Assembly: GCA_963810085.1 (NCBI GenBank) | Contig: CAWEMR010000005.1 | Span: forward strand, 378,648 to 442,647 | DNA from: an uncultured Alphaproteobacteria bacterium | GTDB lineage: Bacteria; Pseudomonadota; Alphaproteobacteria; Rhizobiales; Xanthobacteraceae | Reading direction: 5' to 3' | DNA length: 64,000 nucleotides | In this document: positions 7,595 to 62,474 of the stretch, in pieces | How positions within the stretch are numbered: position 1 is the first letter of the stretch | Layout of the letters: the number at the start of each line of letters is the position of its first letter | Program-made: the position numbers and the translations under genes | The notes under the pieces: generated by a model | What the model saw: the letters and a program-made list of their open reading frames with translations, nothing else | Told to the model about the DNA's origin: nothing | Database searches by the model: none

Positions 7595-7604
7595 GACGGA
7601 CTCC

Positions 7605-10297: not shown

Positions 10298-10319
10298 GGA
10301 GCTTCCCTTTCAGATCAAG

Positions 10320-10346: not shown

Positions 10347-10385
10347 AGTGGCCCAAAAATTTTGCGAGAAAGTTCCGCGCTCCGG

Positions 10386-10613: not shown

Positions 10614-10724
10614 TGTCCTTCTCCCCGTTGCTGCTTCTAAGACGACCGGCCATGCGCCAATCCGACATCCCATTCAAAAAAATCTCGCGTGCAAAAAAAT
10701 CTCGCGTGTTGGAGGACTCGCCGA

Positions 10725-11207: not shown

Positions 11208-11212
11208 CTCTC

Positions 11213-11548: not shown

Positions 11549-11652
11549 CCGGTTAAATAACCGATTGGTTTAATACATTGGAGACCCTTCCCCGTCAAGC
11601 GGCCTTACGATCCCACCACGCGAAAATGCCTCGGCGCTGCTAAAACACCGGC

Positions 11653-42257: not shown

Positions 42258-43037
42258 TTAATCGAACAGCGCCACCGCCCGCGTCCAGCCGGCCGAACCG
42301 GCTTTCACCTTGTAGGGAAAGCAGGCCACGGTGAAACCGTGGTCGGGGAGTTGTTCGAGATTGCACAATTTCTCCATGTGGCAATACGGAATCTCGCGTC
42401 CGGCCTTGTGGCCCTCCCAGATGATCGACGGATCGTGCGTCTTCAGCCAGCGCTCGCGCGTATGCGAGAACGGCACGTCCCAGCCCCAGGCATCGATGCC
42501 GGCGACGCGCACGCCGCGTGACGTCAGATAAAGCGTCGCCTCGCGGCCCATGCCGCAGCCAGCGGTCAGATATTCCTCGGTGCCGATCAAGCTCGACGCC
42601 CGCGTATTGACCAGCACAATATCGAACGGCTTGAGCTCGTGCCCGATGCGCTTCAGCTCGGCCTCGACCTCGGCCGCCGTGACGACGTGCCCGTCGGGCA
42701 CTTTGCGGAAATCGAGCTTGACGCCGGGGCGGAAGAACCAATCGAGCGGCACCTGATCTATGGTCATCATCGGCTTGCCGTCGATGGTCTTCGAGTGGAA
42801 GTGAATCGGCGCGTCCATATGCGTGCCGTTATGCGTGGTGAGCTGGATCTGCTCGATGGCCCAGCCTTCGCCGTCGGGCAAATCCTCCTTGCGGAGACCC
42901 GGAAACAGCTCGACCAGCAGCGGCGCGGTCTCGGCATTGCTGACATATTGGATCTTCGGCCGCATGAACGGCGGATCGTAGACCGTTTCATTTTCGAGCG
43001 GCGACGACAGATCGACGATTCGGCTGGGCAGTTTCAT
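42258..43037 (-). CDS. cyclase-family protein (kynurenine-formamidase-like metallohydrolase fold)
   Basis: 259 aa with TTHNGTHMDAPIHF and DAWGWD motifs. Its ATG overlaps the stop of the upstream hydrolase gene (ATGA). Confidence 0.8.
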   Translation of the reverse strand: MKLPSRIVDLSSPLENETVYDPPFMRPKIQYVSNAETAPLLVELFPGLRKEDLPDGEGWAIEQIQLTTHNGTHMDAPIHFHSKTIDGKPMMTIDQVPLDWFFRPGVKLDFRKVPDGHVVTAAEVEAELKRIGHELKPFDIVLVNTRASSLIGTEEYLTAGCGMGREATLYLTSRGVRVAGIDAWGWDVPFSHTRERWLKTHDPSIIWEGHKAGREIPYCHMEKLCNLEQLPDHGFTVACFPYKVKAGSAGWTRAVALFD

Positions 43038-44882: not shown

Positions 44883-46304
44883 CTACTGCACCGTCTCACG
44901 CCGTGCGCGCAGGAAGTGGAAGAATTCGACGCCCTCGCGCAGGCGGCGCACCAGCATGTCGCGGCTGGTCAGCATCTCGCGCACGATCTCGGCGATCTTG
45001 GACGGGCGGAAATAGAACTTCTTGTAGAACTCCTCCACCGAGTCGAAGATCTCGGTGTGGCCGAGATGCGGGTAATTGAGCGGCGCAATCTGCGTGCCGT
45101 CGTCGGTGAGCAGGTCGACGTCGGAGGCGAACCAGCCGTTCTCCTTGGCCTGCTTGTAGAGGAAAGTGCCCGGATAGGGCGCGGCTAGCGACACCTGCAG
45201 CGTGCGCGGGTTCACGTCCTTGGCGAACTGCAGCGTCTCCTTGATCGTCTCGCGCGTCTCGCCCGGCAAACCCAGAATGAAGGTGCCGTGCACGATGATG
45301 CCGAGCTCGCGGCAGTCCTTGGAGAAGCGGCGCGCAACGTCGACCAGCACGCCTTTTTTGATGTTGTGCAGGATCTTCTGGTTGCCGGATTCGTAGCCGA
45401 CGAGGAGAAGGCGCAGGCCATTCGCCTTCATCACTTCGAGCGTCTTGCGCGGCACATTGGCCTTGGCGTTGCACGACCAGATGACGCCGAGCGGGCCGAG
45501 CGCGCGGGCGAGCGCTTCGACGCGCGGATGATCGTCGGTCAGCGTGTCGTCGTCGAAGAAAATTTCCCTGACCTGGGGAAATTCCTTCATGACGTATTTG
45601 ACGTCTTCGACCACGCGTTCGATCGACATGGCGCGGTATTTGTGCCCGCCGATGGTCTGCGGCCACAGGCAGAACGTGCAGCGCGATTTGCAGCCGCGGC
45701 CGGTATACCAGCTCATATAGGGGTGCTGGAGATAGCCGCCGAAATAGTTCTCGACCTTGAGCTGCCGGTAGATCGGGAGGACCGACGGCAGCTGGTCCAT
45801 GTCCATCAGGACTTCACGCTCAGGGTTATGAATAATCCCGCCGTCCGGCCCGCGATAGGAGAGACCCTTGATGGTCGACCAGTCGGCGCCGTCGGCGAGC
45901 TCCTTGATGGTGAACTCGTATTCGTTGCGACAGACGAAATCGATCGCCGGCGCGGCTTGCAGGCTTTCCTGCGGCTCGACCGCGACCTTGGCGCCGATGA
46001 AGCCGATCTTGGCCGCGGGGTTGATCGCGCGGATCATGCCGGCGGTCTTCACGTCGGACTTGAAGCTCGGCGTCGAGGTGTGGATGACGATGAAGTCGTG
46101 CGACTTCACGTCGTCTTCGATGTCCTCGAGGGTCAGCTGGTGCGGCGGCGCGTCGATGATCTTGGAGCCGGGCACCATGGCGGCGGCCTGCGCCAGCCAG
46201 GTCGGGAACCAGAACGACTTCACCTCGCGCTTCATCTGGTAGCGCGCGCCGGCTCCGCCATCGTACCCGTCGAACGAAGGCGCTTGAAGAAACAGACTAC
46301 GCAT
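44883..46304 (-). CDS. hpnJ: hopanoid biosynthesis-associated B12-binding radical SAM protein
   Basis: 473 aa with the CxxxCxxC motif (GRGCKSRCTFCLWP), an N-terminal B12-binding-like domain, and hpnI immediately upstream with an 8-nt overlap. Confidence 0.8.
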   Translation of the reverse strand: MRSLFLQAPSFDGYDGGAGARYQMKREVKSFWFPTWLAQAAAMVPGSKIIDAPPHQLTLEDIEDDVKSHDFIVIHTSTPSFKSDVKTAGMIRAINPAAKIGFIGAKVAVEPQESLQAAPAIDFVCRNEYEFTIKELADGADWSTIKGLSYRGPDGGIIHNPEREVLMDMDQLPSVLPIYRQLKVENYFGGYLQHPYMSWYTGRGCKSRCTFCLWPQTIGGHKYRAMSIERVVEDVKYVMKEFPQVREIFFDDDTLTDDHPRVEALARALGPLGVIWSCNAKANVPRKTLEVMKANGLRLLLVGYESGNQKILHNIKKGVLVDVARRFSKDCRELGIIVHGTFILGLPGETRETIKETLQFAKDVNPRTLQVSLAAPYPGTFLYKQAKENGWFASDVDLLTDDGTQIAPLNYPHLGHTEIFDSVEEFYKKFYFRPSKIAEIVREMLTSRDMLVRRLREGVEFFHFLRARRETVQ

Positions 46305-47487
46305 TACGTTTCAACCTCGCCGTTTCAACCTCGCCGTAATATGCAAGCGTGTTGTCGGCTTCAACACCGTAGCGATGGCCGCGCCATTCGACGCCCCGGC
46401 CAAAGAAACTCGTCACAAAGACGGCAAATGATACTATATCCCGCAGCGGCCCCGACCGGTAGAAGCCCTCGCGCAGACCGAAGGCGCGATCGAGTTCCGT
46501 CTGAAGCACCGCGCGGCAGGCGAAGGCCACAGGCACAAACGCAGCGAGCGGGCTCATACCCCCGAGCAGCACCGCCAGCAATGCCAGCGGCAGAGCGTGC
46601 GTGATTACGGTTCCGGCAAAGCCCAGCGGGTTCACCGAGCGGATGGTGCGCGCCCAACGCAATTCGTGGCGAAACAGGCCTTGAGCCGAGGGCTGCGTGC
46701 ATTCGTGGCCGACGATATACGGCGGAATGGCGACATCAAATCCGGCGCGCCGGACGGCGGCGCCGAGCGCATAATCATCCGCCAGCTGATCGCTCACCGC
46801 TTCCAGCCCGCCGATTGCGGCAAGCGTTTCCTTGCGGATCGCGATGGTCGAGCCGAAGCAGGGTACAGCAAGTCCAAACATAAGGCCGACGAGCACGCTG
46901 GGCAGGAAATGGTAGTCGATGGCGGCGGCAGAGAGCCTGGACCAGATGCCTTCCGCCGCAACCCCCCGATAGAGGCAGGTAACGAGGCCGACGCCGGGCC
47001 GTTGCAGGCTTGCCGCAATGTTATTCAGATAGTCGGGATCAACGACGATATCGCTGTCCGATATCACCAGGACGTCATGCCGGGCTTCGGCCGCCATGTT
47101 GATCAAATTCGAAATCTTGCGGTTGCTGCCGTGACGGCGCGGATTGATCACCAAGCTGAGATCGCGGTCGGGGAAATCCGCGATAATCCGACGCACGACC
47201 TCGATCGCGGGATCGGCGCGGTCGCTCACACCGAAGATGATTTGCACCGGACTCGGATAATCCTGAACGCAGAAGCCGGTCAAATTGGCGTAAAGATTGG
47301 ATTCGGTTCCGTGCAACGGCTTGAGAATCGTGACGGCCGGAGTGCTTGCCGCCTCCGTGCCGCCAGCCGATTCAACAAACCAGCGTGCGGCATAGGCAGC
47401 CAGCAGCGCATAGAGGCAGCCGAGCGCTACCGCCGCATAACAAGCCAGTGACGCCACCTTGGCGCACTCAGCGAATAACTCGTCCAC
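46297..47487 (-). CDS. hpnI: hopanoid-associated family-2 glycosyltransferase
   Basis: 396 aa, GTG start. N-terminal TM helix, GT2 core with VLVISDSDIVV (DxD) and C-terminal TM helices. It lies between hpnL and hpnJ. Confidence 0.75.
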   Translation of the reverse strand: MDELFAECAKVASLACYAAVALGCLYALLAAYAARWFVESAGGTEAASTPAVTILKPLHGTESNLYANLTGFCVQDYPSPVQIIFGVSDRADPAIEVVRRIIADFPDRDLSLVINPRRHGSNRKISNLINMAAEARHDVLVISDSDIVVDPDYLNNIAASLQRPGVGLVTCLYRGVAAEGIWSRLSAAAIDYHFLPSVLVGLMFGLAVPCFGSTIAIRKETLAAIGGLEAVSDQLADDYALGAAVRRAGFDVAIPPYIVGHECTQPSAQGLFRHELRWARTIRSVNPLGFAGTVITHALPLALLAVLLGGMSPLAAFVPVAFACRAVLQTELDRAFGLREGFYRSGPLRDIVSFAVFVTSFFGRGVEWRGHRYGVEADNTLAYYGEVETARLKRNA

Positions 47488-47648
47488 GCCCCCACCCCGT
47501 AAACGGCCTTCTTCGGCCTGACCCAGTTCGGATTATATGGTGCCGCCCCATCTCATGCACGCAAAAGAAATTGCCAAAATAAGCTCCGCAATTAGGCCGG
47601 ACGATCATGGACTTAAGTATCATGCGTTTGATGATCATGGGCGTAACG

Positions 47649-48629
47649 TCATCCGCCGGCCGATTTGCGCTGAGTAAAGAAGCGCCGTCCCTCCAGCACC
47701 TGCCACGCCAAGAGCGACGGGATGCCGAGAACCAGATCGGGAACGCGCTTGATCAACGCCATCGCCAGCGCGACTTCGGCCGGAACGCCAAAAATCGCCG
47801 ACGCCGCGATCATGGTTCCGTCCTGGACCCCAATCCCGGCGGGCAGCATGAAGGCAGCGGCCTTGCCGCCCTGGCCGATGCTCTCGATCGCGATTGCGGC
47901 CGCCACGCTGACCGGGTGGCCCATGAAGTAAAACGCGATCCAGACCTCGACCGCGCCGAAGAAAACCGTCACCAGATGAACGAAAAACGATCCGGACAGA
48001 CCGCGATGATTGCGCCAGATCTGCTTCAGCCGATCGCCGAGATCGACAACGTGGGCGAACAGCGACCAGCGGCGTTTTTCGCAAAAAGCCACGAGCCACC
48101 GGACGACCGGGTCGAACGCGCCAAAGTTCAGGGCCAGGAAGAAGGCCGCCACGGTCGGCAATGCCATCGCTAGCATAACGAAGGTCACGGCGCTGAGCCG
48201 ATGCGGGCCCGGAACATCGAGGACGATACCGACCCCTACGCCCACATAGATCAACAGGCCGACGATCTGGACGAAAATGTCGATCAGGACACTGGCAATG
48301 GCCAAACTTATGGCCGTGCCGAAATGCGAAAGAAGCCTGGCGCCGATGATGTCGCCGCCGACGATGGCAAAAGGAAATAAGGAATTGATGGCCTCGCGGA
48401 TGAAACGCAGGCCGATAAAGACGTGAGGGCCGGGCCCGTTCGGCGTGAGCAGAAACCACCAGCCAATGCCGCATCCCGTAAGCGCCACGGCGCGGGCCAG
48501 GACGACGAGCGCTGTGCCCCATTGCGAGCTAAGCACTGCCTGCATGACTGAAGCGAAGCCGAAATAGGCGACCAGCCCGGTCAGCAGCGCCAGGCCGAGA
48601 ATCCCGGCGATTGGGGCGAAAATCCTCAT
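47649..48629 (-). CDS. hpnL: hopanoid-associated membrane protein (UPF0104 / lysyl-PG-synthase TM-region family)
   Basis: 326 aa and polytopic, upstream of hpnI on the same strand. Confidence 0.7.
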   Translation of the reverse strand: MRIFAPIAGILGLALLTGLVAYFGFASVMQAVLSSQWGTALVVLARAVALTGCGIGWWFLLTPNGPGPHVFIGLRFIREAINSLFPFAIVGGDIIGARLLSHFGTAISLAIASVLIDIFVQIVGLLIYVGVGVGIVLDVPGPHRLSAVTFVMLAMALPTVAAFFLALNFGAFDPVVRWLVAFCEKRRWSLFAHVVDLGDRLKQIWRNHRGLSGSFFVHLVTVFFGAVEVWIAFYFMGHPVSVAAAIAIESIGQGGKAAAFMLPAGIGVQDGTMIAASAIFGVPAEVALAMALIKRVPDLVLGIPSLLAWQVLEGRRFFTQRKSAGG

Positions 48630-48792
48630 CTGGAAGCCGTCATTTCCACGCCATATAGGAAATTTCGTGGAAGCAAATCCAGCCAGAGGTGTGACGACAC
48701 CAATTCATCTGTGAGGTGTGGCTTTTCTGCACTAGTGGACCGCGGATGCCCCTTCTATCTTTAGTTTTCAACATCTAACCATGGGGGCAAAA

Positions 48793-48903
48793 ATGAAAAA
48801 GCTCGCGTTCGGTACGGCAGTTGTTCTCGCACTTCTCAGCATGGCTGGCTGCGCACAAGTCGGCAAAGGCAAGGCGCCGCCGCCGGTCGTCACCAAGGGC
48901 TAA
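48793..48903 (+). CDS. 36-aa lipoprotein (hypothetical)
   Basis: Hand translation gives MKKLAFGTAVVLALLSMAGCAQVGKGKAPPPVVTKG, with a lipobox LSMAG|C. It is below the ORF-track size cut-off and lies between hpnL and hpnG. Confidence 0.5.
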   Translation: MKKLAFGTAVVLALLSMAGCAQVGKGKAPPPVVTKG

Positions 48904-49036
48904 CCGCGAAGACGGTCGGTATGAAGACGGGCATGCTCGGCCGCTCCCGCGGGTGTTCTTTGAGACTAAAGTTTCGCAGTGTGATCGATCACGATGTGAC
49001 TGATCGCGGTGTGATAGAAGTACAAGTGGGGGCCAC

Positions 49037-49714
49037 GTGATCATCGTCGTCGGACTGGCATTTGAAGCACGCATCGCCGCAGGACCAGGGGTGCGTGTCA
49101 TCTGCAGCGGCGATGGTCGCAACTTGGCAGCTAAACTTACAGCAGCGATCGCGGATGCCCGCGAACACGTTCAGGGCTGTCCGGGCATCATCAGTTTCGG
49201 CGTAGCCGGGGGGCTGGCGCCGCAACTGCGGCCCGGCACCTGCGTGGTCGGGTCCGCGGTTATTTCCGGTGAGAACCGGATGCCGATCAGCCGGGAATGG
49301 TCGCACAAGCTTTTGCGGACCATTCCGGACGCGATCCCGGGCGTGCTGCTCGGCGTTCCGGCGCCGATCGCCAATCCGGACGAAAAGCGCGAACTCTATG
49401 TGAAGACCGGCGCCATCGCGGTCGATATGGAATCCCATATCGTCGCCGCGGTTGGCTTAGCCCACGAACTGCCGGTGGCGGCGATCCGGGTCATTACCGA
49501 TCCCGCCAGACGCGCCTTGCCGGCCTCTGCGGTCGCGGCCATGCGCCCGAACGGCACCACGAATATCGGCGCCATGCTCCGTTCGGTGCTGCGGCGGCCG
49601 AAGGAACTGCCGGCCCTTTTCCAAACGGCGCTCGACGCACGCGCCGCGCGGGCAACCCTGGTGCGTGGAAGGCACTTACTCGGTCCTGCATTTACCTTGC
49701 CATCGACGACTTGA
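49037..49714 (+). CDS. hpnG: hopanoid-associated phosphorylase/nucleosidase (PNP/UDP family)
   Basis: 225 aa, GTG start. IIVVGLAFEARI..., ISFGVAGGL and AVDMESH are motifs of the PNP_UDP_1 fold. The hpn neighbourhood supports the call. Confidence 0.75.
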   Translation: MIIVVGLAFEARIAAGPGVRVICSGDGRNLAAKLTAAIADAREHVQGCPGIISFGVAGGLAPQLRPGTCVVGSAVISGENRMPISREWSHKLLRTIPDAIPGVLLGVPAPIANPDEKRELYVKTGAIAVDMESHIVAAVGLAHELPVAAIRVITDPARRALPASAVAAMRPNGTTNIGAMLRSVLRRPKELPALFQTALDARAARATLVRGRHLLGPAFTLPSTT

Positions 49715-50093: not shown

Positions 50094-51161
50094 ATGACCC
50101 GCACGAGGTTCGCTATGATCGAACGTAGGGCTTCGTACGACGCCGCACCGCAGGCGCTGGGATATGTGGGAATTCGCGCCAAGGATCTGGGCGATTGGGC
50201 AAGCTATGGCTCAGGGCTCCTCGGCCTCCAGCGCATCGACAAATCGCGTTCGACGCTCGCCTTCCGGATGGACGATCGCAAGCAACGCCTCCTGGTCGAG
50301 GCCGACGGCGGTGCCGGCATCGGCCTTTTCGGCTGGGAGGTGGCGGACGCGCCGGCGCTCGAGGCCATTGCCACACGTCTCGAACAAAGCGAAATCAAGG
50401 TTGCACGCGGCACACGAGCGCTTGCCGACGAACGCCACGTCAAGGATCTGATCGTGCTCAGCGACCCGGCCGGCAACCGGCTCGAACTCTTTCATGGCGC
50501 CGAGACCACGGCGGAACCGTTCAAGCCAGGCCGCTCCATCTCGGGCTTTCGCACCGGTCCGCTCGGCCTGGGCCACGTCGTGCTCAACGCCGACACTCCG
50601 CAGACGATCGAAACCTTGATGGCGTTTTATCGCGACACGCTCGGTTTCCGGCTGACGGATTACTATTCGCATCCTTTCGTCGCCCGCTTTCTTCATCTCA
50701 ATCCGCGCCACCACAGCCTCGCCTTCATCCAGACCGGCAAGAACGCGGTCCATCACATCATGATGGAGCTTTTCAGCTTCGACGATGTCGGTCAGGGCTA
50801 CGATCTCGCGCTCGGCGAAAAGGACCGCGTCGCGGTGACGCTCGGCCGCCACACCAGCGATTTCATCACCTCGTTCTACAGCTGGACGCCTTCCGGGTTC
50901 ATGGTCGAATACGGTTGGGGCGCACGTTCGATCGACGTCGATAGCTGGCAAGCCTTTGAACGCAAGGAAGGCCCAAGCATGTGGGGCCACGACCGCTCGT
51001 GGCTGTCGCCGGAGGACAACGCCAAGGCCGGCGCCTTGCGGCTGAAGAATGCCGCCGACGGGTTTCGCCGCCCGGTCCAGGTGATCGACGGCAATTACGA
51101 AGTGATGTCGGGCGTCTGCCCGTGGTGGGATAGTGTGAAACAGCGCACCGCCGCACGCTGA
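50094..51161 (+). CDS. type I extradiol ring-cleavage dioxygenase (BphC/HsaC-like) with a C-terminal extension
   Basis: LGYVGIRAKDL..., GLGHVVL, RHHSLAF, HHIMMEL, LGRHTSDFITSFY, EYGWGA and SMWGH are two-domain VOC extradiol signatures. The start could be 50094 or M8 at 50115. Confidence 0.8.
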   Translation: MTRTRFAMIERRASYDAAPQALGYVGIRAKDLGDWASYGSGLLGLQRIDKSRSTLAFRMDDRKQRLLVEADGGAGIGLFGWEVADAPALEAIATRLEQSEIKVARGTRALADERHVKDLIVLSDPAGNRLELFHGAETTAEPFKPGRSISGFRTGPLGLGHVVLNADTPQTIETLMAFYRDTLGFRLTDYYSHPFVARFLHLNPRHHSLAFIQTGKNAVHHIMMELFSFDDVGQGYDLALGEKDRVAVTLGRHTSDFITSFYSWTPSGFMVEYGWGARSIDVDSWQAFERKEGPSMWGHDRSWLSPEDNAKAGALRLKNAADGFRRPVQVIDGNYEVMSGVCPWWDSVKQRTAAR

Positions 51162-52510: not shown

Positions 52511-53425
52511 TTATTTGTCGCGCGACGCTTTCAGATGCGCCACGACTTTGGCGCGCAAGGCGGCCTGCTCTTCGGCACTCCACTTGCGAAAGCCCTCGCC
52601 CGATTTGAAACCGAGCTTGCCGTCGGCGACAAGCTTCTTCAGGTAAGGCGACGGCCCCGGCCGGCTGTCGATCGCCGGCAGCACGTTGTCGTGAATCGCA
52701 AGCGCCAGATCGGTGCCGACGAGATCGGCGTTTTCGAGCGGCCCGAGCACCGCGATGCGCCGACCAAATGAAGCCTTGATCACGGCGTCCACGGTCTCGG
52801 CGTCGCAGATGCCGTTTTCGACCAGCGAGATCGCCTCGCGCCACAGCGCGTGTTGCAGCCTGTTGCCGATGAAGCCCGGCACGTCCTTTTTGACATGGGC
52901 GGGCTTCTTGCCGGCGCGGCGATGCAGTTCCATGGTCCAGCTAACGGTCTGCGGCGAGGTCCATTGCGTTTCGATCACTTCGACCAGCGGCACCAGAAAC
53001 GGCGGATTCCACCAATGGGTGCCAAGCGCGCGCTCCAGTTGGTTCAGGCCCTGCATGATCGAGGTGATCGGAATGACCGAGGTATTGCTGGCAAGGATCG
53101 TGTCGGCGCGCACGTGGCGCTCGATCTCCGCGAACAGCGTTTGCTTGAGCGGCAGATCTTCCAGCACCGCTTCGACGACGTAATCGGCGTCGCGGACGGC
53201 TAAGGCAAGGTCGGCCTGCGGCGTGACGCGGTCGACGGCGGAAGGATCGTCACCGAGGTCTTTCAGGTTCGCGGAGATGCGCGACTTCACGGTCTCGAGA
53301 CTTTTGACAAACGAGTCGGTGATCGTGACATCGTGCCCGGCAAGCGCGAACACTTGCGCAATGCCGTGGCCCATCAGGCCCGCGCCGACGACCGCAATAC
53401 GCGCCTTCGCCACGTCGACTGTCAT
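52511..53425 (-). CDS. 3-hydroxyacyl-CoA dehydrogenase-family protein
   Basis: 304 aa with IAVVGAGLMGHGIA, SNTS, GTHWWNPP and GFIGNRL motifs. Confidence 0.85.
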   Translation of the reverse strand: MTVDVAKARIAVVGAGLMGHGIAQVFALAGHDVTITDSFVKSLETVKSRISANLKDLGDDPSAVDRVTPQADLALAVRDADYVVEAVLEDLPLKQTLFAEIERHVRADTILASNTSVIPITSIMQGLNQLERALGTHWWNPPFLVPLVEVIETQWTSPQTVSWTMELHRRAGKKPAHVKKDVPGFIGNRLQHALWREAISLVENGICDAETVDAVIKASFGRRIAVLGPLENADLVGTDLALAIHDNVLPAIDSRPGPSPYLKKLVADGKLGFKSGEGFRKWSAEEQAALRAKVVAHLKASRDK

Positions 53426-53427
53426 TG

Positions 53428-54231
53428 TCAGCCCGCCGTATAGCCGCCGTCGGCATAAAGGATGTGGCCGGTGTAGAAGTCGGACGCCTTGGACGCGAGG
53501 AACAACAGCGGCCCGGCGAGATCTTCGGGCTCGCCGAGACGGCCCTTCGGCACGCGCGTCAGAAAGCCCGCGCGCACGGTCTTGCCACGCTCGTCATCGG
53601 CGAACATCCACTCGGTCAGCGGCGAGCGGAAAACCGTGGGACCGAGCGCATTGACCGTGATCCCGGTGGCGCCGAGCTCGCAGCCGAGCGCCTTGGTGAT
53701 GCCGTCGACGGCGGATTTCGAGGCGCAATAAGCGGTATAGCCGGCCGGGTGGCCGAGCAGGCCGCGCGCGGACGACATCAGAATAATCTTGCCGCCGCGG
53801 CCCTGCTTGATCATCTGCCGCGCCGCGGCGCGCGCCATCAGCCAGGATTGCGTGACATTGGCGTCCATCACGTCGAGAAAATCCTCGGCCTTTTGATCGA
53901 CGATCTTCGCCACTTTGTTCTGGCCCGAGGCGACGACCAGGATGTCGAGGCCGCCGAATGCCTCGACCGCCGCCGCGACAATGGCGTCGCAATGCGCTTC
54001 GGAGCTTGGGCGTTTGGCCACGACCTCGGCCTTGCCGCCGAGCTTGACGCAGTCCGCGGCGAGCTTCTTGAGCCCTTCCGCATTGTTTGCGGCGGCGACG
54101 ACACTAGCGCCGGCTGCGGCCAAAGTTTTTGCGGCAATGGCGCCGAATGCACCGGTCGCGCCGGTGACGATGGCAGCCTTGCCGCGCACATCGAACAGCG
54201 AGAGTGGGTTTTTCAGAAAATCTTCGGACAT
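53428..54231 (-). CDS. SDR-family oxidoreductase
   Basis: The start was taken at M37 of ORF 53428..54339 (MSEDFLKNPLSLFDVRGKAAIVTGATGAFG...). The catalytic Ser and YCASK are present. The stop lies 2 nt before the next ATG. Confidence 0.85.
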   Translation of the reverse strand: MSEDFLKNPLSLFDVRGKAAIVTGATGAFGAIAAKTLAAAGASVVAAANNAEGLKKLAADCVKLGGKAEVVAKRPSSEAHCDAIVAAAVEAFGGLDILVVASGQNKVAKIVDQKAEDFLDVMDANVTQSWLMARAAARQMIKQGRGGKIILMSSARGLLGHPAGYTAYCASKSAVDGITKALGCELGATGITVNALGPTVFRSPLTEWMFADDERGKTVRAGFLTRVPKGRLGEPEDLAGPLLFLASKASDFYTGHILYADGGYTAG

Positions 54232-54302
54232 GATCGTTACTCGTGTTTGAACCGTCACCGAGGCGCGAGCGGAGCGGGCCTCAGGATGACGGAGCACAAA
54301 CG

Positions 54303-54641
54303 CTATTTCACCGGCGCCACGGCCACCGCGATGGTGCAAACATCATGGCCGCGATTGATGATCTCGCGGCTTTCGTTCGGACCGATGTAGCAGCTATCGC
54401 CCGCCTTGATGACAGACTCCTTGCCGCCGGCAATGACCGTGAGTTCGCCGGCCAGCACATAGTAAATCTTCTCCGGCGGCGAAGCGTCGGGGCCGGCGCC
54501 GCCGCCCGGCAGAAAGTGCGAGACGCCAAAGACCAGCGTTTGCGAGCCACCCATCTCGGCGCCGAACACGCGAAACGACTTGTATTCGCGGTGGTTCGGC
54601 GCTTCGTAGGGTTTCGCTTCGGAGAACTTGCGGACGATCAT
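54303..54641 (-). CDS. cupin-domain protein (112 aa)
   Basis: The start was taken at M83 of ORF 54303..54887 (MIVRKFSEAKPYEAPNHREY...YYVLAGELTV...GDSCYIGPNE). It shares a TAATG overlap with the upstream cyclase gene. Confidence 0.7.
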   Translation of the reverse strand: MIVRKFSEAKPYEAPNHREYKSFRVFGAEMGGSQTLVFGVSHFLPGGGAGPDASPPEKIYYVLAGELTVIAGGKESVIKAGDSCYIGPNESREIINRGHDVCTIAVAVAPVK

Positions 54642-55483
54642 TAGAACTTCTCCCCCTTCTCGATGCGATAGGCGCCCTTCGGATCGATGATCGCGACTAA
54701 TCGGATGATGCAGCCGTCGCCGCGATCCCAGTTCCACGGGAAGAACGCGAAGGTGCAGCGCTTGCCGGTGACTTTGTCTATATCGCCGCCGACATTCTCG
54801 ATGCCGAGAATGCCGTTCTTGAACAGGATGCGGTGCACCGGCTCCCATTCGGGAAAGTCGTCCTTCCAGTCGCGGCCGCCGGACCATTCCTTATATTCAT
54901 CGGCGAGATGCGGATGCAGCGGACCGTTGCGCTGCGGGCCGATCGCGGTCGCCAGCGGATGATCATTGGCCTGGGTGTCGTGGCCGACGACCTTGACCTT
55001 CTTTTCGACGAACCATTTGCCGGCCGACGACACAAAGCCCGGCGAGCGGCAGAAATAGTCCTCGCTGTCTTCGTAAAGCTTGTGCCAGCCGGTATTGACG
55101 ATGACGACGTCACGGGGCCGCACAATCCTGCCGGCCGCCTTCTCCAGATCGTCATAGGTGATCTGTTCCCATTTCTTCTTCGGGATCGAGATCACGATGC
55201 CGGAGCCGAAGAAATGCGGCAGCGGCACTTCATCGATGAACGGCGTGCCCTGCACCACATGTGCCGGCGCATCGATATGGGTGGTGTTGTGCATCGACGT
55301 CGTGATGCGCTGCGACAGCACGCCCGACTTCGCCATGTAATGAATGCGCTCGATCTTGACGTCTTCGAAATAGGGCCAGTTCGGCGACTGATAGCCGAAG
55401 CGATGCGACAGATTGTAGAATTGCAGCCCCATCGCGTTGTTGAGGTTTTCTTCGAAACTCACTCCGCGAATTTTCTTCGCCAC
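54641..55483 (-). CDS. cyclase-family protein (metal-dependent hydrolase fold)
   Basis: 280 aa with SMHNTTHIDAPAHV and VVGHDTQAND motifs. It is the first gene of the minus-strand operon downstream of iclR. Confidence 0.8.
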   Translation of the reverse strand: MAKKIRGVSFEENLNNAMGLQFYNLSHRFGYQSPNWPYFEDVKIERIHYMAKSGVLSQRITTSMHNTTHIDAPAHVVQGTPFIDEVPLPHFFGSGIVISIPKKKWEQITYDDLEKAAGRIVRPRDVVIVNTGWHKLYEDSEDYFCRSPGFVSSAGKWFVEKKVKVVGHDTQANDHPLATAIGPQRNGPLHPHLADEYKEWSGGRDWKDDFPEWEPVHRILFKNGILGIENVGGDIDKVTGKRCTFAFFPWNWDRGDGCIIRLVAIIDPKGAYRIEKGEKF

Positions 55484-55597
55484 AGTGTCTTCCTCCCGGT
55501 TTCTTCCCGCATCCGCTTCAGCGGCGGTTACGGCACGTGTACTGGTATCCGGTACGGTGTGTACCGCAACGCGGTCGACCGGACAAGCCGCCCGTCG

Positions 55598-56389
55598 TTA
55601 CGCGGCGGCCGCCATCAGATGCCGCTCCAGCGCCTCCTTGGTCGCGCGCAAGCGGTCCACAATCTGTTTCTGGCGGTCGTAGAAACGCTGCGCCGGCACC
55701 GGCACCGAGATCGCCAAAACATTGCCGACCGGGTCGCGCGTCACAGTGCCGGCGGCGCAGATGCCGCTCGTGTGCTCTTCACGGTCGATGGCGACGCCAG
55801 TCTTGCGCACGGATTTCAGATCCTTGAGCAGATCGTCGAGCCGCGTCAGCGTGCACGGCGTGCGGCGCTCATAGATGGTTCCAATCAGGCGCTCGATCGC
55901 TGTGGCGTCGAGCCCGGCGAGATAGGCCTTGCCGTTCGCCGTGCAATAAAGCGGAAAGCTCTCGCCGACCGCCGAGACGGTGCGCAGCCGCTGCGAACCG
56001 ATGACCTGGTCGACGAAAACCAAGTGGTCGTTCTTGACCACGGCAAGATCGGCGGTTTCTTTAAGCTCGCTGGAGAGCTGCGCCAAAAACGGCCGCGCCG
56101 CAGCGACGAAATCGGTGCGCGCGGAAGCTGCAAGCCGCAGGATCGTCGGACCGAGCCGCACGCGGCCGTTCGGCGAGGCCGCGATCAGAAACTTCTCGGC
56201 CGCGAGCGCGCCGACAATGCGCTGCACCGTCGAGCGCGCCAGATTGACCCGTTGCGCGATCTGGCCGAGGCTCAAGCCTTCCATTTCATCTTCGAGGATG
56301 CGCAGGATTGCCGCGGCGCGCGCAATCACCTGCACCTGACTTTTGTCGCTGCTCTTGTCGCCTAACGCGCGCATGCCGGTTGCCCGCAT
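55598..56389 (-). CDS. IclR-family transcriptional regulator
   Basis: HTH (VIARAAAILRILEDEMEGLSLGQIAQRVNLARSTVQRIVGALA) plus an IclR effector domain. Several in-frame ATGs exist (56404, 56389, 56374). 56389 has an AGGACGAG-like SD. Confidence 0.8.
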   Translation of the reverse strand: MRATGMRALGDKSSDKSQVQVIARAAAILRILEDEMEGLSLGQIAQRVNLARSTVQRIVGALAAEKFLIAASPNGRVRLGPTILRLAASARTDFVAAARPFLAQLSSELKETADLAVVKNDHLVFVDQVIGSQRLRTVSAVGESFPLYCTANGKAYLAGLDATAIERLIGTIYERRTPCTLTRLDDLLKDLKSVRKTGVAIDREEHTSGICAAGTVTRDPVGNVLAISVPVPAQRFYDRQKQIVDRLRATKEALERHLMAAAA

Positions 56390-56531
56390 GTCTCGTCCTG
56401 GCATGTGCTGCCCTGCCCTTAGTCCACGCAATCTTGCTGCCCGGTTCGTGCTTTGATACAGGATCACCGCCATACGGTACAGAGGATAGCGCCGGCACCA
56501 AGAACCGGTGCCGCAAAAGTCGGGGGGTCAG

Positions 56532-57494
56532 ATGGTCCACAAGATCGCGCTCGAAGAGCACTTCCTCCCGCCCGGCTTCGAAGATTATTGGCGGCCGACC
56601 GTCCGCCATATCGATCCCAAGCACGCCGCTAAATTGTTCGCGGCACTGACCGATTTCGGCGAGGCGCGGCTATCCTCGATGGATGAAGCCAGCATCGCCC
56701 GCTCCGTCCTCGGCTTGGCCGGACCCGGCGTCCAGGCCGAGCGCGATACAGCGACCGCGATCCGCAATGCCAAATCCGCCAATGATTTTCTTGCGCGGGA
56801 ATTAGCCAAGCGGCCGGAGCGCTATTCCGGCTTCGCGCATCTTGCCATGCAGGACCCGCGTGCGGCGGCGGATGAGTTGGAACGTTGCGTACGCGAGCTA
56901 AAATTCTGCGGCGCGATGATCAACGGCCACACCCATGGCCAATATCTCGATCATCCGTCGCTCTCGCCGTTCTGGGAACGCGCCGAGGCGCTCGGCGCGC
57001 CGATCTATATCCACCCGACCGATCCGATCACGCCCTCCCCCGCGCTTGACGGCTATGACGGGTTGCGCCGCGCCACTTGGGAATGGGGCTTTGAAACCGG
57101 CTCGCACGCTTTGCGCCTGGTCTTTGGCGGGCTGTTCGACCGCTTCCCGCGCGCCAAAGTCATGCTCGGCCATCTCGGCGAGACGCTGCCTTACTTGTTG
57201 TGGCGCTTCGACAGCCGCGCCAAGCTCTACAGCGTCAAGCTCGCCAAACCGCCGTCCGTTTACATCAAAGAGAACATCCTGGTGACGACGTCGGGCATGT
57301 GCTCCGCCGAACCGCTCGGCTGCGCAATCGCAGCGCTCGGGCATGAACACGTGATGTTTGCCGCCGATCATCCCTTCGAAACGGCGCAGGAAGCCGGCGA
57401 GTTTCTCGATCATACGCCGCTCACGGAGAACGTGCGCGAGGACATTGCTTTCAACAATGCCGCAAAGCATCTTGGCCTTGCGAAAGGCCGATAA
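56532..57494 (+). CDS. amidohydrolase-2 family non-oxidative decarboxylase (gamma-resorcylate / dihydroxybenzoate decarboxylase-like)
   Basis: The start was taken at M9 of ORF 56508..57494. KIALEEHF, FAHLAMQDP, YIHP, GHLGE..PY..WR and DHPFE are hallmarks of the resorcylate/LigW-type decarboxylases as I remember them. Confidence 0.75.
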   Translation: MVHKIALEEHFLPPGFEDYWRPTVRHIDPKHAAKLFAALTDFGEARLSSMDEASIARSVLGLAGPGVQAERDTATAIRNAKSANDFLARELAKRPERYSGFAHLAMQDPRAAADELERCVRELKFCGAMINGHTHGQYLDHPSLSPFWERAEALGAPIYIHPTDPITPSPALDGYDGLRRATWEWGFETGSHALRLVFGGLFDRFPRAKVMLGHLGETLPYLLWRFDSRAKLYSVKLAKPPSVYIKENILVTTSGMCSAEPLGCAIAALGHEHVMFAADHPFETAQEAGEFLDHTPLTENVREDIAFNNAAKHLGLAKGR

Positions 57495-57513: not shown

Positions 57514-58455
57514 ATGACAAAAGTCCTCATCGTCGACGTCCACGCCGAGATGTATCGCGACCGGCTGGCGGCGGAATTCCCGGATCTGGAGTTCGCGCTG
57601 TTTCACAAGGCGGCCGACGTGGCGGGCGATTTGTCCGACATCGACGTCATGCTCATGTTCGGCATTGAGGTACGCGACGAAATGCTCAGCGGCGCGCCGC
57701 AACTGAGATGGATCCAGTCGCTGGCAACCGGTGTCGATCATTTCCTGCGCTGTCCCTCGCTCAAGCCCGACGTGTTGATCACCAGCGGCCGCGGCATCCA
57801 CGGCCCGCCGATGCGCGAGCAAGTCGTTTATCTGATGATGGCGGTGAGCCGCGACGCCAAGCGCCAGGTCGAAGACCATCAGCACCGCATCTGGCAGCGC
57901 CGGCTCTGGAGCACGTTGCACGGCAAGACAGCGGTGGTCGTCGGCACCGGCATCGTCGGCGAGGCGATCGGCGAATTGTTGCGCGCCTTCGGCATGCACA
58001 CGATCGGTGTCACGCGCACGCCGCGCAAGATCGCCGGCTTTGACGAGACGATGTCCGCCGATCGCCTGCCGGAAGCCGCGGCGAAAGCCGATTACCTGAT
58101 CAATGTGCTGCCGGCGAGCGCCGACAATATCGGGCTGTTCGGCGCCAAGGTGTTCGGCGTCATGAAGCCTTCGGCCTATTACATCAGCGCCGGCCGCGGC
58201 CAGACGGTAGACGAAGACGCCCTGGCCGCAGCCTTGCGCGAGCGGCGGATCGCCGGCGCCGGCTTCGATGTTTTCCAGGCCGAACCGCTGCCGCCGGAGA
58301 GCCCGTTCTGGCAATTGCCGAACGTGTTCATCACCCCGCATGTCGGCGGCTATGTCGTCGAATACGAGGATTTCGTGATGCCGCTTGTGATCGACAACAT
58401 GCGGCTGTTCGTCGCCGGACGACTGAGCGACATGCAAAATATCGTGCCGCGCTAG
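57514..58455 (+). CDS. D-isomer-specific 2-hydroxyacid dehydrogenase-family protein
   Basis: The start was taken at M53 of ORF 57358..58455 (MTKVLIVDV...). GKTAVVVGTGIVG NAD fold, and ARG..VDE and TPHVGG motifs. Confidence 0.8.
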   Translation: MTKVLIVDVHAEMYRDRLAAEFPDLEFALFHKAADVAGDLSDIDVMLMFGIEVRDEMLSGAPQLRWIQSLATGVDHFLRCPSLKPDVLITSGRGIHGPPMREQVVYLMMAVSRDAKRQVEDHQHRIWQRRLWSTLHGKTAVVVGTGIVGEAIGELLRAFGMHTIGVTRTPRKIAGFDETMSADRLPEAAAKADYLINVLPASADNIGLFGAKVFGVMKPSAYYISAGRGQTVDEDALAAALRERRIAGAGFDVFQAEPLPPESPFWQLPNVFITPHVGGYVVEYEDFVMPLVIDNMRLFVAGRLSDMQNIVPR

Positions 58456-58593
58456 GCGCTGCGAGCGGTACTCCTCGGGCGCTTGAGTGTTTCCAAGTCC
58501 AGGAATTTGTTGCAAAATCTACCATTCCCGGCGCGCCCGCAAAAAAGGGGATATACCCCGCGACGCATCACCCGAGGAATGTGGAGGACGCCC

Positions 58594-61500
58594 ATGCTCG
58601 CCAAGCTCAAACTGCCGATCATCCTGTTCGGCGCGGCGCAACTCCTCAAACATGCGGCGCGGCGGCATCCGGACTTCAGAGCGCGCGTCAAGGAGCATAA
58701 TTTCACGGCCCAGATCATGACGCGCGACGAAGAGATCGGGCGCTGGATCGAATTCAAGGACGGTACGATCACTTCGCGCGCCGGCTTGCACGACAAGCCT
58801 GACATCAAATTGATGTTCAAGAACGCGGGCGTCGGCGCGAGGTTACTCACGCCGCCGATCAACTGGTTGCAACAGATCAACGCCCAGAAGGATTTCGTGC
58901 TCGCGGTCGACGGCCCCGAGCATCTGACCAATTGGTTCGCGCAAACGCTGATGCTGAGCCAGTCGGCCGGGCTCACATACGGCAAGAGGCTGCGCCGCGG
59001 CGTCAGACGCTATTGCAACATGACCAATGGCGGGCCGGTTTTCGTCGACGTCAAAGCCGACAAGATCCTGCGCATGACGCCGATCGATCTCGCCGACGAC
59101 GACGAGGCATCGTGGACCATCGAGGCCAAGGGCTTAAAACTCACGCCGCCGCGTAAGACGACGCTGGCGCCGCACGGGCAGAACGCAAAATCCGTCGTCT
59201 ATTCGCCGGATCGACTGCTCTATCCGATGAAGCGCGTCGACTTCGACCCGAACGGCGCGCGCAATCCGCAAAACCGCGGCAAGTCGGGCTATGTGCGCAT
59301 CTCGTGGGACGAGGCGATCAAGATCGTCACCGACGAGATCAAGCGGCAGAAGCGCGATCATGGACCCGGCGCGATCACGTTCTCGCACGGCTCGCATCAC
59401 ACCTGGGGCAATATCGGCTACTACCTCTCCGCGCTGTTCCGCTTCGCCAATGCGGTCGGCATGACGCGCATCCATCACAACCCGGATTCGTGGGAAGGCT
59501 GGTACTGGGGCGCGGTGCATCACTGGGGCCATACGCTCCGCGTCGGGCAATCGGAAACTTACGGCACCGTCGAAGACTGCCTGCAGAACTGCGACATGAT
59601 CGTGTCGTGGGCGGCCGATCCCGAATCGACGTCGGGCTCCTACGGCGCGCAGGAAGGTACGACGCGGCGGCAATGGCTGAAAGATCCGAAGCTCGGCATC
59701 AAGGTCGTCCACGTCGACCCATATTACAACGCCTCGGCGCAATTCCTGCCCGGCAAATGGTTCGCGCCGAAGCCGACCACCTCGGTCGCGATGGCGATGG
59801 CGATCGCCTACGTCTGGATCAAGGAAGGCCTCTACGACAAATCCTACGTCGAGACGCACACCGTCGGGTTCGACAAATGGAAGGCGTATTTGCTCGGCGA
59901 CGACGACGGCATTGCGAAAACGCCGGAATGGCAGGAGCAGGAAACCGGCGTTCCGGCAAAGGACGTCCGCGCGCTGGCGCGGGAATGGGGCAAGAAGCGC
60001 GTCTATCTCGCGCCAGGCGGCTGGGGCAACGGCCATGGCGGCGCCTGCCGCAACCAGACCGGCATCCAGTGGGCGCGGGTGATGGTGTGTCTCGTCGCCA
60101 TGCAGGGCCTCGGCAAGCCCGGCATCAATATGGGCAATCTACAATGGGGCACGCCGATCGACTTCAATTTCTATTTCCCCGGTTATGCCGACGGCGGCAT
60201 GTCGGGCGATCTCGAAAACACCTCGATGCCGGTCGAGCTCTATCAGCGCATGCCGCAATTGCCGACCATGAATTCCAACGCCCAGCGCATCCCGCGCATC
60301 TTCGTGCCGGAGGCGATCCTCGACGGCAAAGCCGAGGGCTATCCGTGGGTCGGCAAGTCGATCGAGCATCAGTTTCCGAAATTCACTTATCCGGCGGCCG
60401 GCCACTCGCCGGTGCACATGCTCTACAAATACGGCGGCTCGATCCTTTCGACCATGAACAATACCAACCGCTGGGTGCGGATGTATCAGTCGGAGAACCT
60501 CGAATTTGTGGTCAACCAGTCGATCTGGTTCGAAGGCGAAGCGAAATTCGCCGACGTCATCCTGCCGGCCTGCACCAATTTCGAGCGCACCGACATCAGC
60601 GAGTGGGCCGGGCTCGGCGGCTATGGCCATCACGGCCAGCAGCAGCTTAATCACCGCGTCATCGTGTTCCAGGCGCCGGCGATTAAGCCGCTCGGCGAAT
60701 CGAGATCCGACTTCTGGATTTTCAACGAGCTGTGCAAGCCGCTCGGGCTCGCCAATTATTTCTCCGAAGGCTGCAACGAGATCGACTGGGTCAAGCGCGC
60801 CTTTCTCGCCTCCGACCTGCCGCAGCACATTTCGTGGAAGAAATTCTTGAAGCGCGGTTATTTCGTCGTGCCGGCCGAGAAGGAAAAACTGCGCGCGCCT
60901 GTGTCGTTCCGCTGGTTCTTCGAAAACCGCAAGAAAGATGTGCCGGAAGCGCAGCCGCTGCCGTCCGACTACACCGAGGAATATCTGCGCGGGTTGCAGA
61001 CCCAGTCCGGCAAGCTCGAATTCGAGTGCAATTCGCTCAAACGCTTCAACGATCCGGAGCGGCCGCCGATCGTCAAATACGAGCCGTCATGGGAGGGCGC
61101 GCATTCCGGCGAATTGTTCGAGCGCTATCCGCTGCAGCTTCTCACCCCGCACTCAAAATATTCGTTCCACACCCAGGGCGACGGCAAGGATTCGTTTTTG
61201 CTCAATATCGAGGACCATCGCGTCAGGGTCGACGGCTACTATTATTGGATCATGCGCATGAACGCCGATGACGCCAAAGACCGCCGCATCGGCAAGCACA
61301 ATCTGGTCAAAGTGTTTAACGATCGCGGCGCGGTGATTTGCGCGGCGCTGCCGACGCAGCGGCTGCCACGCGGCGTCGCGCACGGTTATGAGTCCTCGGC
61401 GATCTATGATCCGATGGGCGAGCCCGGCAAATCGGTCGACCGCGGCGGCTGCCTCAATCTGCTCACGCCCGAGCGCACGCAAACCAAATCCACGCATTCG

Positions 61501-61641
61501 CTCGCCGGATCGAATTCGCTGGTCCAGATCGAATTGTGGGACGGCCGCACCGAACACATGTCTGCGGCATTCGCAACTGCGGAAAAAGACAAGGACATCG
61601 AGCGCACACCGAATGAGGCGCAACTGGTGCCGGCAAAATGA
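58594..61641 (+). CDS. molybdopterin (bis-MGD) enzyme, pyrogallol-phloroglucinol transhydroxylase / resorcinol hydroxylase large-subunit-like, with an extra N-terminal domain
   Basis: ATG 58594 has GGAGGA 5 nt upstream. From about residue 142 onward ([25 protein letters not shown]...[14 protein letters not shown]...[12 protein letters not shown]...[33 protein letters not shown]...GGCLNLLTP) it is collinear with the Pelobacter AthL-type subunit as I remember it. The first roughly 140 aa are additional. Confidence 0.8.
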
Positions 61642-62474
61642 AAAAATGGAACATGATTATCGACGTGGCTGAGTGCACGAACTGCAATCTGTGCACGCTT
61701 GCCGCCATGGATGAATATGTCGGCAACGACTGGCCCGGCTACTCTGCGCCGATGCCAAAGCACGGCCATAAGTGGATCAATATTCTGCAGAAGGAGCGCG
61801 GGCAGTTGCCGATGATCGACCTCGCCTATGTTCCGACCATGTGCAATCACTGCGACGATGCGCCTTGCATGAAGGCCGCGCCCAAAGGCGCCATCAAAAA
61901 GCGCAAAGACGGCATCGTGCTGATCGATCCGGTGAAGGCGAAGGGGCAGAAGCAGCTGGTCGATGCCTGCCCTTACGGGCATATCTGGTGGAACGAGGAA
62001 TTGCAGTTGCCGCAGGCCTGGACCTTCGACGCGCATCTGATCGACCAAGGCTGGCAGCAGACCCGCGGCCAGCAATCCTGCCCGACCGGGGCGATGCGCG
62101 CGATCAAGGTCGAGGACGAGGAGATGTCGCGCATGGCGAGCGAGCAAAGTCTCGAAGTCATGAAGCCCGAGCTCAACGCCAAGCCGCGGGTCTATTACCG
62201 GAACCTGTGGCGCTATTCGAAATGCTTTATCGGCGGATCGGTGTCGGAAGAGAAAGACGGCGTCGTCGATTGCGTCGAAGGCGCGACCGTGCAATTGGTC
62301 AAGGAGGGCGAGTCGGTCGCGGTGACCACGACCGACAATTACGGCGACTTCAAATTCGATAGGCTCGACGAGAATTCCGGCGCCTACACCGTGCAGATCT
62401 ATGCCGGTGGCCGTTCTAAACTGGTGGAGACCAGCCTCGGCTCGAGCATCAATCTCGGCGATATCAGGTTGTGA
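61638..62474 (+). CDS. 4Fe-4S cluster beta subunit of the transhydroxylase-like enzyme
   Basis: 278 aa with an ATGA overlap with the alpha subunit. Cys clusters [16 protein letters not shown] and CPYG...CPTGA. The C-terminal Ig-like barrel ([29 protein letters not shown]) is as in the BthL-type subunit. Confidence 0.8.

Follow-up and report, generated by a model that had tools for sequence, protein, structure and literature searches.

The 64,000-nucleotide stretch of DNA considered here (the window: GenBank assembly GCA_963810085.1, contig CAWEMR010000005.1, positions 378,648 to 442,647 of the forward strand), from an uncultured alphaproteobacterium of the Xanthobacteraceae, encodes a molybdenum (Mo) enzyme that resembles AthL, the catalytic alpha subunit of the Pelobacter acidigallici pyrogallol-phloroglucinol transhydroxylase, but starts with an additional domain of about 137 residues. 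This is a real, widespread and undescribed domain fusion, and it marks a subfamily of the known AthL-type enzymes. The added domain (N-domain) is predicted to have the fold of the SCP2 superfamily. With a probability of roughly 55%, we regard it as a fixed ligand-handling module of the clade of long AthL/BthL enzymes, working on a small polyhydroxybenzene and not on a lipid-like phenol. The parts of the gene and of its partner, in window coordinates, are as follows.

58583..58587, plus strand: Shine-Dalgarno (SD) sequence GGAGG, 6 nt 5' of the ATG at 58594
58594..59004, plus strand: N-terminal SCP2-fold domain and linker (residues 1-137), as predicted with AlphaFold2 and Foldseek
59005..61548, plus strand: AthL-type catalytic core for Mo-bis(pyranopterin guanine dinucleotide) (residues 138-985), from phmmer, Foldseek and PF21423, PF00384 and PF01568
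61549..61638, plus strand: C-terminal tail of 30 amino acids (residues 986-1015), beyond the AthL alignment
61638..62474, plus strand: BthL-type iron-sulfur beta subunit of 278 amino acids, with Pfam Fer4_11 and CarboxypepD_reg

A reading made earlier from the letters of the window (the sequence-only reading) had placed an SCP2-like segment in one continuous frame with the Mo-enzyme core, and this holds. The open frame on the plus strand is unbroken from 58483 to 61641, and the product from the ATG at 58594 has 1015 amino acids. The Pfam matches are AhtL-like_1st (residues 147-200), Molybdopterin (207-715) and Molydop_binding (847-964). In a phmmer search of all PDB sequences, the segment from 138 to 985 is aligned to residues 5-870 of Pelobacter acidigallici AthL (4v4c_A, 875 amino acids, E = 1.2e-281). 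Because the alignment spans only these residues, both the N-terminal extension of about 137 residues and the 30-residue C-terminal extension, the latter also anticipated by the sequence-only reading, are real. The end that had been given to the N-terminal segment, 59016, needs correction: the extension itself stands, but that coordinate lies about four codons inside the AthL-aligned part, and the boundary falls at 59004.

The start at the SD-preceded ATG 58594, likewise proposed earlier, is borne out by comparison with relatives. An SD sequence with an ATG or GTG occurs at the aligned position in most of the related loci L001-L036, the predicted N-termini of homologues coincide, and the exact 1015-residue product is already recorded in public collections, where gene callers chose the same start. 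The N-terminal segment is 33-83% identical across 72 full-length relatives, and in none of the 72 does a stop codon separate it from the core. Among 13 close sequences, the median ratio of nonsynonymous to synonymous substitution rates (dN/dS) is lowest in the core (0.065), intermediate in the C-terminal tail (0.13) and highest in the N-domain (0.22), so that the N-domain evolves about three times as fast as the core. A dN/dS of 0.22, together with the conserved SD sequence and start codon, argues that the segment is not a chance extension of the frame; judged from these sequence comparisons, the N-domain is translated and under selection. The same observations make it hardly credible that the fusion is an annotation artefact, with the true start close to the core and the preceding frame either non-coding or belonging to a different gene. 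Only the missing Pfam match would favor such an artefact, and the sole split copy, in Sinorhizobium terangae, is due to an IS110 interruption. Proteomics aside, the translation start can be taken as settled. No RNA support for it was found, the sequence having turned up solely in soil metagenome DNA runs, and a terminator, a promoter-like site and an Rfam element were looked for in the 138-nt leader of the Mo-enzyme gene and none was found. A transmembrane segment or a twin-arginine translocation signal at the N-terminus was considered and rejected: the hydrophobic stretch is not long enough, charged residues break it up in relatives, and the twin-arginine motif is missing.

The proposal that the N-terminal segment has an SCP2-type fold is supported by structure prediction. 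Modelled by itself with AlphaFold2 from an alignment of 46 sequences, the N-domain reaches a mean predicted local distance difference test (pLDDT) of 85 and a predicted template modelling score (pTM) of 0.77. The predicted topology is H-H-E-E-E-E-H-H-E-H (H, helix; E, strand), with a long last helix, and agrees with the SCP2 pattern of N-terminal helices, a five-stranded sheet and a C-terminal helix. Its elements are the following.

Residues 2-24, 26-32, 78-85, 91-99 and 109-121/129: predicted helices
Residues 37-43, 49-55, 58-63, 71-75 and 103-106: predicted strands
Residues ~122-137: linker to the core

When this model was compared with the PDB by Foldseek, ranks 1-36 were all SCP2-superfamily structures (probability 1.00, query-normalised TM 0.43-0.61). 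The best match is UbiJ-SCP2 (6h6o, 6h6p; E = 3e-6, TM 0.58-0.61), and others include the SCP2-like C-terminal domains of the alkylsulfatases Pisa1, SdsA1 and YjcS, AF1534, TT1886, and SCP2 of animals, yeast and insects. This unbroken series of matches, obtained with a confident model, supports the fold assignment. The profile searches that had been suggested alongside structure prediction gave a different outcome, none of them reaching significance. Neither Pfam nor NCBIfam matches residues 1-146 of the window protein, a phmmer search of the PDB with the N-domain sequence alone gave no meaningful match, a profile built from 21 diverse copies of the domain found no SCP2 protein among PDB sequences, and hhalign gave no match to a human SCP2 sequence entered by hand. 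A Pfam scan of the 21 copies returned subthreshold matches to SCP2 (PF02036) in four (best E = 0.026) and a weak Alkyl_sulf_C match in one. The prediction thus supports residues 1-137 as a very diverged member of the SCP2 superfamily, recognisable by fold only.

The distribution of the domain shows that the fusion is not peculiar to the window. A scan of GTDB with one genome per species revealed relatives in at least 597 species, and among the best 80 loci the N-domain is present in all 79 that are informative, the 80th being interrupted by a contig end. These long forms span at least eight phyla, and no loss of the N-domain was noticed inside the clade. Their hosts include Xanthobacteraceae (the closest, at 93%), Bradyrhizobium, Rhodoplanes, Stellaceae, Magnetospirillum, SAR116 and Rhodobacterales, and further Gammaproteobacteria, Desulfobacteraceae, Dehalococcoidia, Anaerolineales, Thermoleophilia and Actinomycetota. 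Among cultured bacteria, the long form is carried by Burkholderia stagnalis, Ensifer canadensis, Paraburkholderia hospita, Cupriavidus oxalaticus and Salipiger abyssi, among others. Searches with the full-length protein gave thousands of matches, 985-1030 amino acids long, that cover the entire query. The domain was found only in this company. A word-indexed search with the N-domain gave 204 proteins, all of them fragments of AthL-like genes, and a profile run exhaustively against 1.84 billion representatives gave 610 proteins, among which every longer match inspected was an AthL fusion. Stand-alone N-domain genes, suggested by matches of 130-160 amino acids on long contigs, were rejected, those inspected either ending in the linker or being frameshifted fragments; the inspected matches of about 135 residues stop in the linker and are thus contig-end fragments.

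An apparent natural short form in Sinorhizobium terangae, whose match begins at residue 134, was also rejected, as the gene is split by an IS110 transposase. On the plasmid pCB3126_1 (L081, 7088-11586), the IS110-family transposase gene (7592-8692) is inserted exactly in the linker, leaving an N-domain open reading frame of 162 amino acids and a core open reading frame of 820. This is a natural domain-split allele, probably an inactive one.

Enzymes of the Pelobacter type, in contrast, lack the domain. Pelobacter AthL itself is without it, as are its close relatives in 80 of 80 loci (57-86% identity) gathered in a metagenome scan with the Pelobacter sequence: a hidden Markov model of the N-domain found no copy in any of them, whereas control long-form loci gave 81 copies. 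The survey for presence or absence that the sequence-only reading had called for therefore separates two groups cleanly. When core sequences are placed in a neighbour-joining tree with TorA-like and BisC-like proteins as the root, 76 of them form a long clade and 63 a short one, and the single apparent exception is a short paralogue beside a long gene in a Desulfobacteraceae locus. On this sequence tree, the long and short forms are separate subfamilies and sister clades. Both occur side by side in L064 (Desulfobacteraceae; 2530-5112 and 10001-12946), where a BthL-like gene adjoins each of the two AthL-like copies, and in L072 (Thermoleophilia; 7897-10438 and 11581-14520). Coexistence of the two forms in one genome argues for differing roles. 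The concern that the extension might be a ubiquitous, already annotated part of the enzyme family applies in one respect only: it is ubiquitous within a very large clade, but Pfam and NCBIfam do not annotate it.

Apart from the added domain, the window protein is a close structural counterpart of Pelobacter AthL. The cores are about 60% identical, and Foldseek superimposes the modelled core on 4v4c_A with a target-normalised TM of 0.94 and a root-mean-square deviation of 1.8 Å. Window His268, Asp298, Ser299 and Tyr531 correspond to Pelobacter His144, Asp174, Ser175 and Tyr404 and are all retained; we take Ser175 to be the Mo ligand and the other three to be catalytic. These four positions are invariant in 76 long and 64 short sequences, save one long form at Asp174. 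The start of the beta-subunit gene overlaps the stop of the athL-like gene (ATGA), and a BthL-type gene is adjacent in 73 of 80 related loci. The three Pfam domains, the serine ligand, the linkage of AthL-type genes to phloroglucinol-pathway genes and an adjacent iron-sulfur beta subunit with CarboxypepD_reg are all shared with the Pelobacter AthL/BthL system.

Other positions divide the two clades. At the position of Pelobacter Arg153, all 64 short forms have Arg, and all 76 long forms have an aromatic residue (Tyr, Trp or Phe), which in the window enzyme is Tyr277. Trp354 is Trp in 59 of 64 short forms (Phe or Met in the others) and His, Phe or Leu in the long; Phe468 is Phe in the short and Trp, Thr or Ile in the long; and Trp463, which is Trp in 94% of short forms, is deleted in the long. 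These clade-specific substitutions are observed, and they suggest that the long forms have an altered substrate pocket. The window enzyme thus differs from Pelobacter AthL in its placement in the sister clade, in its Tyr for Arg153, in the changes at 354, 463 and 468, and in its added 30-residue C-terminal tail. As far as its sequence indicates, it is of the AthL type by three-domain architecture, catalytic residues and adjacent iron-sulfur subunit, but it does not carry the presumed pocket residues of the Pelobacter type. Resorcinol hydroxylase RhL/RhS of Azoarcus (Aromatoleum) anaerobius is, by its published description, a further AthL/BthL-type, serine-coordinated Mo enzyme, and acts on a dihydroxybenzene (PMC10100899).

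The relation of the N-domain to the core can be approached through the full-length model (pLDDT 85.5, pTM 0.88), in which the blocks of the N-domain score 84-95 and the linker 86-92. When the N-domain is modelled alone, the linker region scores 67 and 49. The rise in score suggests, within the limits of a predicted structure, that the linker becomes ordered because the N-domain packs on the core. Covariation between N-domain and core, calculated as mutual information with average product correction at an effective number of about 65 sequences, gave a signal that is mainly phylogenetic noise.

Several points weigh against a ligand-handling role. The N-domain residues that do not vary within the clade are for the most part polar or charged (Gln40, Arg50 and Lys99; also Asp45 and Ser61), a pattern as compatible with a protein-protein interface as with a ligand site. 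No sequence-profile method gives a significant SCP2 match, and the assignment depends on predicted structure; the docking of the domain, its position with respect to the substrate funnel and a cavity inside it are all putative. The short form performs its chemistry without the N-domain, which makes the domain dispensable for catalysis as such. Finally, the roles of Arg153, Trp354 and Phe468 as pocket residues are assumed. A purely structural role, in which the domain no longer binds a ligand but acts as an interface in oligomerisation, in alpha-beta assembly, in the chaperoning of cofactor insertion or for stability, would suit the polar invariant residues, the roughly threefold faster evolution relative to the core, the linker ordered as if by packing, and the absence of any remaining SCP2 signature at the sequence level. 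We nevertheless consider it unlikely, since the domain has been kept in at least eight phyla with no loss noticed in the long clade, and since it co-occurs with the clade-specific change at the Arg153-aligned residue, presumably a pocket residue, which suggests a link to ligand handling. SCP2 domains that are fused to enzymes generally bind ligands.

The kind of ligand is suggested by the genes around the Mo enzyme. On its upstream side these are the following.

52511-53425, minus strand: 3-hydroxyacyl-CoA-dehydrogenase-like gene (3HCDH-like; Pfam)
53428-54231, minus strand: short-chain dehydrogenase/reductase (SDR), like phloroglucinol reductase (PGR; Pfam, best PDB matches 5g4k/5g4l)
54303-54641, minus strand: small cupin of 112 amino acids (Pfam)
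54641-55483, minus strand: cyclase-family gene, like dihydrophloroglucinol cyclohydrolase (DPGC; Pfam)
56526..57491, plus strand: Amidohydro_2 decarboxylase, gamma-resorcylate-decarboxylase-like (Pfam, PDB match)
57514-58452, plus strand: D-isomer 2-hydroxyacid dehydrogenase, directly upstream of the Mo enzyme

A gene for an IclR regulator also lies within 52511-57491, next after the cyclase-family gene in the divergent upstream set, and a gene for a TctC-type carboxylate-binding protein follows the beta subunit. The SDR matches 5g4k/5g4l, which we take to be phloroglucinol reductase, at E = 6e-56, with the next match at 4e-41; the best PDB matches of the decarboxylase are 3s4t/4qro and gamma-resorcylate decarboxylase 2dvt (E = 6e-68). 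An SDR, a cyclase-family protein and a 3-hydroxyacyl-CoA-dehydrogenase-like protein form the core of the characterised phloroglucinol cluster of Clostridium scatologenes, and the authors of that study noted the cluster in Bradyrhizobium too (PMC10470551). The region 52511-57491 looks like a complete phloroglucinol-utilisation cluster; a BKACE/TAL-type lyase was not noticed near it. The set of PGR, DPGC, dehydrogenase and cupin genes also stands beside long forms in Thermoleophilia, Anaerolineales and Actinomycetota (L072, L075, L076), and because the small cupin travels with the set in these loci, it may be an unrecognised component of the phloroglucinol pathway. In the closest relatives (L001-L012), too, the D-isomer 2-hydroxyacid dehydrogenase gene immediately precedes the Mo-enzyme gene.

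Other recurrent neighbours of long forms are VOC-type dioxygenases and FAA-hydrolase-family proteins, and there are hints that in aerobes the Mo enzyme feeds oxygen-dependent ring cleavage. VOC dioxygenase and FAA-hydrolase genes flank the long forms of Burkholderia stagnalis (L082), Pseudomaricurvus alkylphenolicus (L165) and several metagenome-assembled genomes, and in the window a gene for a VOC/BphC-type extradiol dioxygenase, at 50094-51158, adjoins the cluster.

By their predicted functions, the neighbours indicate small polyhydroxybenzene substrates. The sequence-only reading had reasoned from the SCP2-like domain to a lipophilic phenol or quinol as the substrate, and here the evidence runs the other way: the PGR, DPGC, decarboxylase and TctC neighbours point to small-ring catabolism and leave that proposal unsupported. 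In its full form, it would have the SCP2 domain recruit an alkylresorcinol, a prenylated or flavonoid-derived phenol or a quinol, the enzyme not being a simple trihydroxybenzene transhydroxylase. The closest structures, UbiJ and the SCP2 domains of alkylsulfatases, are in keeping with it, the latter recruiting hydrophobic substrates. There are also weak hints: the Arg153-aligned residue, whose pocket role is again our assumption, is aromatic in all long forms, in Burkholderia stagnalis the gene immediately upstream encodes an OmpW-family porin, and the alkylphenol degrader Pseudomaricurvus alkylphenolicus carries a long form. However, the phloroglucinol reductase/cyclohydrolase/dehydrogenase set accompanies the long form in the window and in three other phyla, and some short forms stand in the same PGR/DPGC context without the N-domain. 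The gamma-resorcylate-decarboxylase-like neighbour and the TctC-type transport protein, the VOC dioxygenase and FAA hydrolase neighbours elsewhere, which are typical for small-ring catabolism, and a core close to Pelobacter AthL in identity and catalytic residues all render a lipophilic substrate quite unlikely.

Under the preferred reading, in which the N-domain is a ligand-handling module and the substrate a small polyhydroxybenzene, the neighbouring decarboxylase would supply such a compound to the Mo enzyme, which may convert it to phloroglucinol for the adjacent reductase/cyclohydrolase pathway. By analogy with the alkylsulfatases or UbiJ, the N-domain would sit docked on the catalytic subunit, where it would retain or direct an aromatic ligand, which could be the substrate, a tetrahydroxybenzene-type co-substrate or the product. 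The Pelobacter enzyme requires a tetrahydroxybenzene-type co-substrate, which is prone to oxidation.

Both analogues have their limits. In the alkylsulfatases (SdsA1, 2cfu; Pisa1, 2yhe/4axh; YjcS, 4pdx; Alkyl_sulf_C, PF14864), as in the window enzyme, an SCP2-fold domain is fused to a catalytic domain, and Foldseek matches these domains to the N-domain at E = 4e-6 to 3e-4. There, however, the SCP2 domain is C-terminal and its partner is a sulfatase of metallo-beta-lactamase fold, whereas the window domain is N-terminal, and the Alkyl_sulf_C profile gave its weak match in just one of the 21 diverse copies. UbiJ and UbiT bind polyprenyl quinone precursors, UbiT acting in the O2-independent route to ubiquinone. 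UbiJ/UbiT and the window domain are both tied to phenolic-ring hydroxylation, and UbiJ is the best structural match, but identity is only 13-16%. Moreover, UbiJ and UbiT are stand-alone accessory factors encoded in ubi contexts, whereas the window domain is part of a Mo enzyme whose gene stands in a cluster for aromatic catabolism, and every copy found is AthL-fused. No ubi genes are present in the neighbourhood of the window Mo-enzyme gene.

The match to UbiJ raises another possibility, namely that the SCP2 domain has an isoprenoid quinone as its ligand or keeps the enzyme attached to the membrane, so that the iron-sulfur chain of the beta subunit trades electrons with the quinone pool. The long form would then be a net O2-independent hydroxylase/dehydroxylase without a membrane-anchor subunit. 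In addition to UbiJ-SCP2 as the top structural match, the Fer4_11 iron-sulfur dicluster domain of the beta subunit is consistent with such coupling. Pelobacter BthL has three [4Fe-4S] clusters, which have no obvious role in a redox-neutral transhydroxylation, and the related resorcinol hydroxylase is membrane-associated. A further point in favor is a DoxX-family membrane protein gene (Pfam E = 9e-11) about 1-2 kb downstream of bthL in 13 long-form loci (among L013-L023, L032, L035 and L041), as a DoxX-like protein is the membrane subunit of Aromatoleum hydroxyhydroquinone dehydrogenase (PMC10084136). The DoxX-family gene is usually accompanied by a class II aldolase/adducin-like gene. Against quinone coupling, neither DoxX nor any other membrane subunit is present in the window cluster or in the closest relatives, short forms without the domain have the same adjacent iron-sulfur beta subunit, and the N-terminal helix is amphipathic, with internal charges in distant copies, and is not transmembrane. 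We therefore hold this alternative to be rather unlikely. A more specific version, in which the SCP2 domain is a built-in holder of a quinone or redox co-substrate through which the soluble AthL/BthL enzyme reaches the membrane quinone pool without an anchor subunit, is slightly less likely again. If it were true, the transhydroxylase scaffold would be a widespread O2-independent phenol hydroxylase/dehydroxylase in soils and oceans, and many "pgthAB" calls in metagenomes would denote another reaction.

As the sequence-only reading had suspected, a fusion of an SCP2 domain to such a Mo enzyme appears to be undescribed. None was found in the literature searched, in which the four papers that mention both SCP2 and molybdopterin are, by title and abstract, on unrelated subjects, and the N-terminal extension is unmentioned in a family-wide phylogeny paper and in a preprint on SAR116 polyphenol use; a structure-based InterPro superfamily tag is possible. 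The public names of homologues are generic, being "molybdopterin-dependent oxidoreductase", also in cultured carriers, or "trimethylamine-N-oxide reductase (cytochrome c)". Hundreds of cluster members bear the latter label in JGI/IMG, and on AthL-type enzymes it is very likely a misannotation.

The sole transhydroxylase that has been characterised biochemically and structurally is the short Pelobacter form, whereas the long form dominates soil data (Xanthobacteraceae, Bradyrhizobium, Burkholderia) and marine data (SAR116, Rhodospirillales). Studies of polyphenol turnover in peat and seawater score such genes as pyrogallol-phloroglucinol transhydroxylase by homology (e.g., 10.64898/2026.07.17.739263). 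The identity of the ligand of the N-domain would tell whether the long forms catalyse the same reaction. The N-domain would be a new domain family in the SCP2 clan and, if the predicted fold is correct, a second case, beside UbiJ/UbiT, of an SCP2 module joined to O2-independent phenolic-ring chemistry.

The C-terminal tail is real yet clade-specific. It is kept only in close alphaproteobacterial relatives of the Xanthobacteraceae/Hyphomicrobiales type and is missing from the long forms of Chloroflexi, Desulfobacteraceae and Actinomycetota. It is predicted to be mostly disordered, the model having a short helix at residues 991-1000 followed by disorder (pLDDT <50 at 1001-1015).

Further upstream, the window encodes a second, unrelated molybdopterin oxidoreductase of 696 amino acids with an N-terminal Fe4S4 domain (39483-41570) and a second cyclase-family gene (42258-43037). 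The region 44883-49711 is hopanoid-biosynthesis-like, in keeping with a host of Xanthobacteraceae/Bradyrhizobium type. Its genes encode a B12-binding radical SAM enzyme, a glycosyltransferase of family 21 and a phosphorylase of the PNP_UDP_1 type, and presumably resemble hpnJ, hpnI and hpnG.

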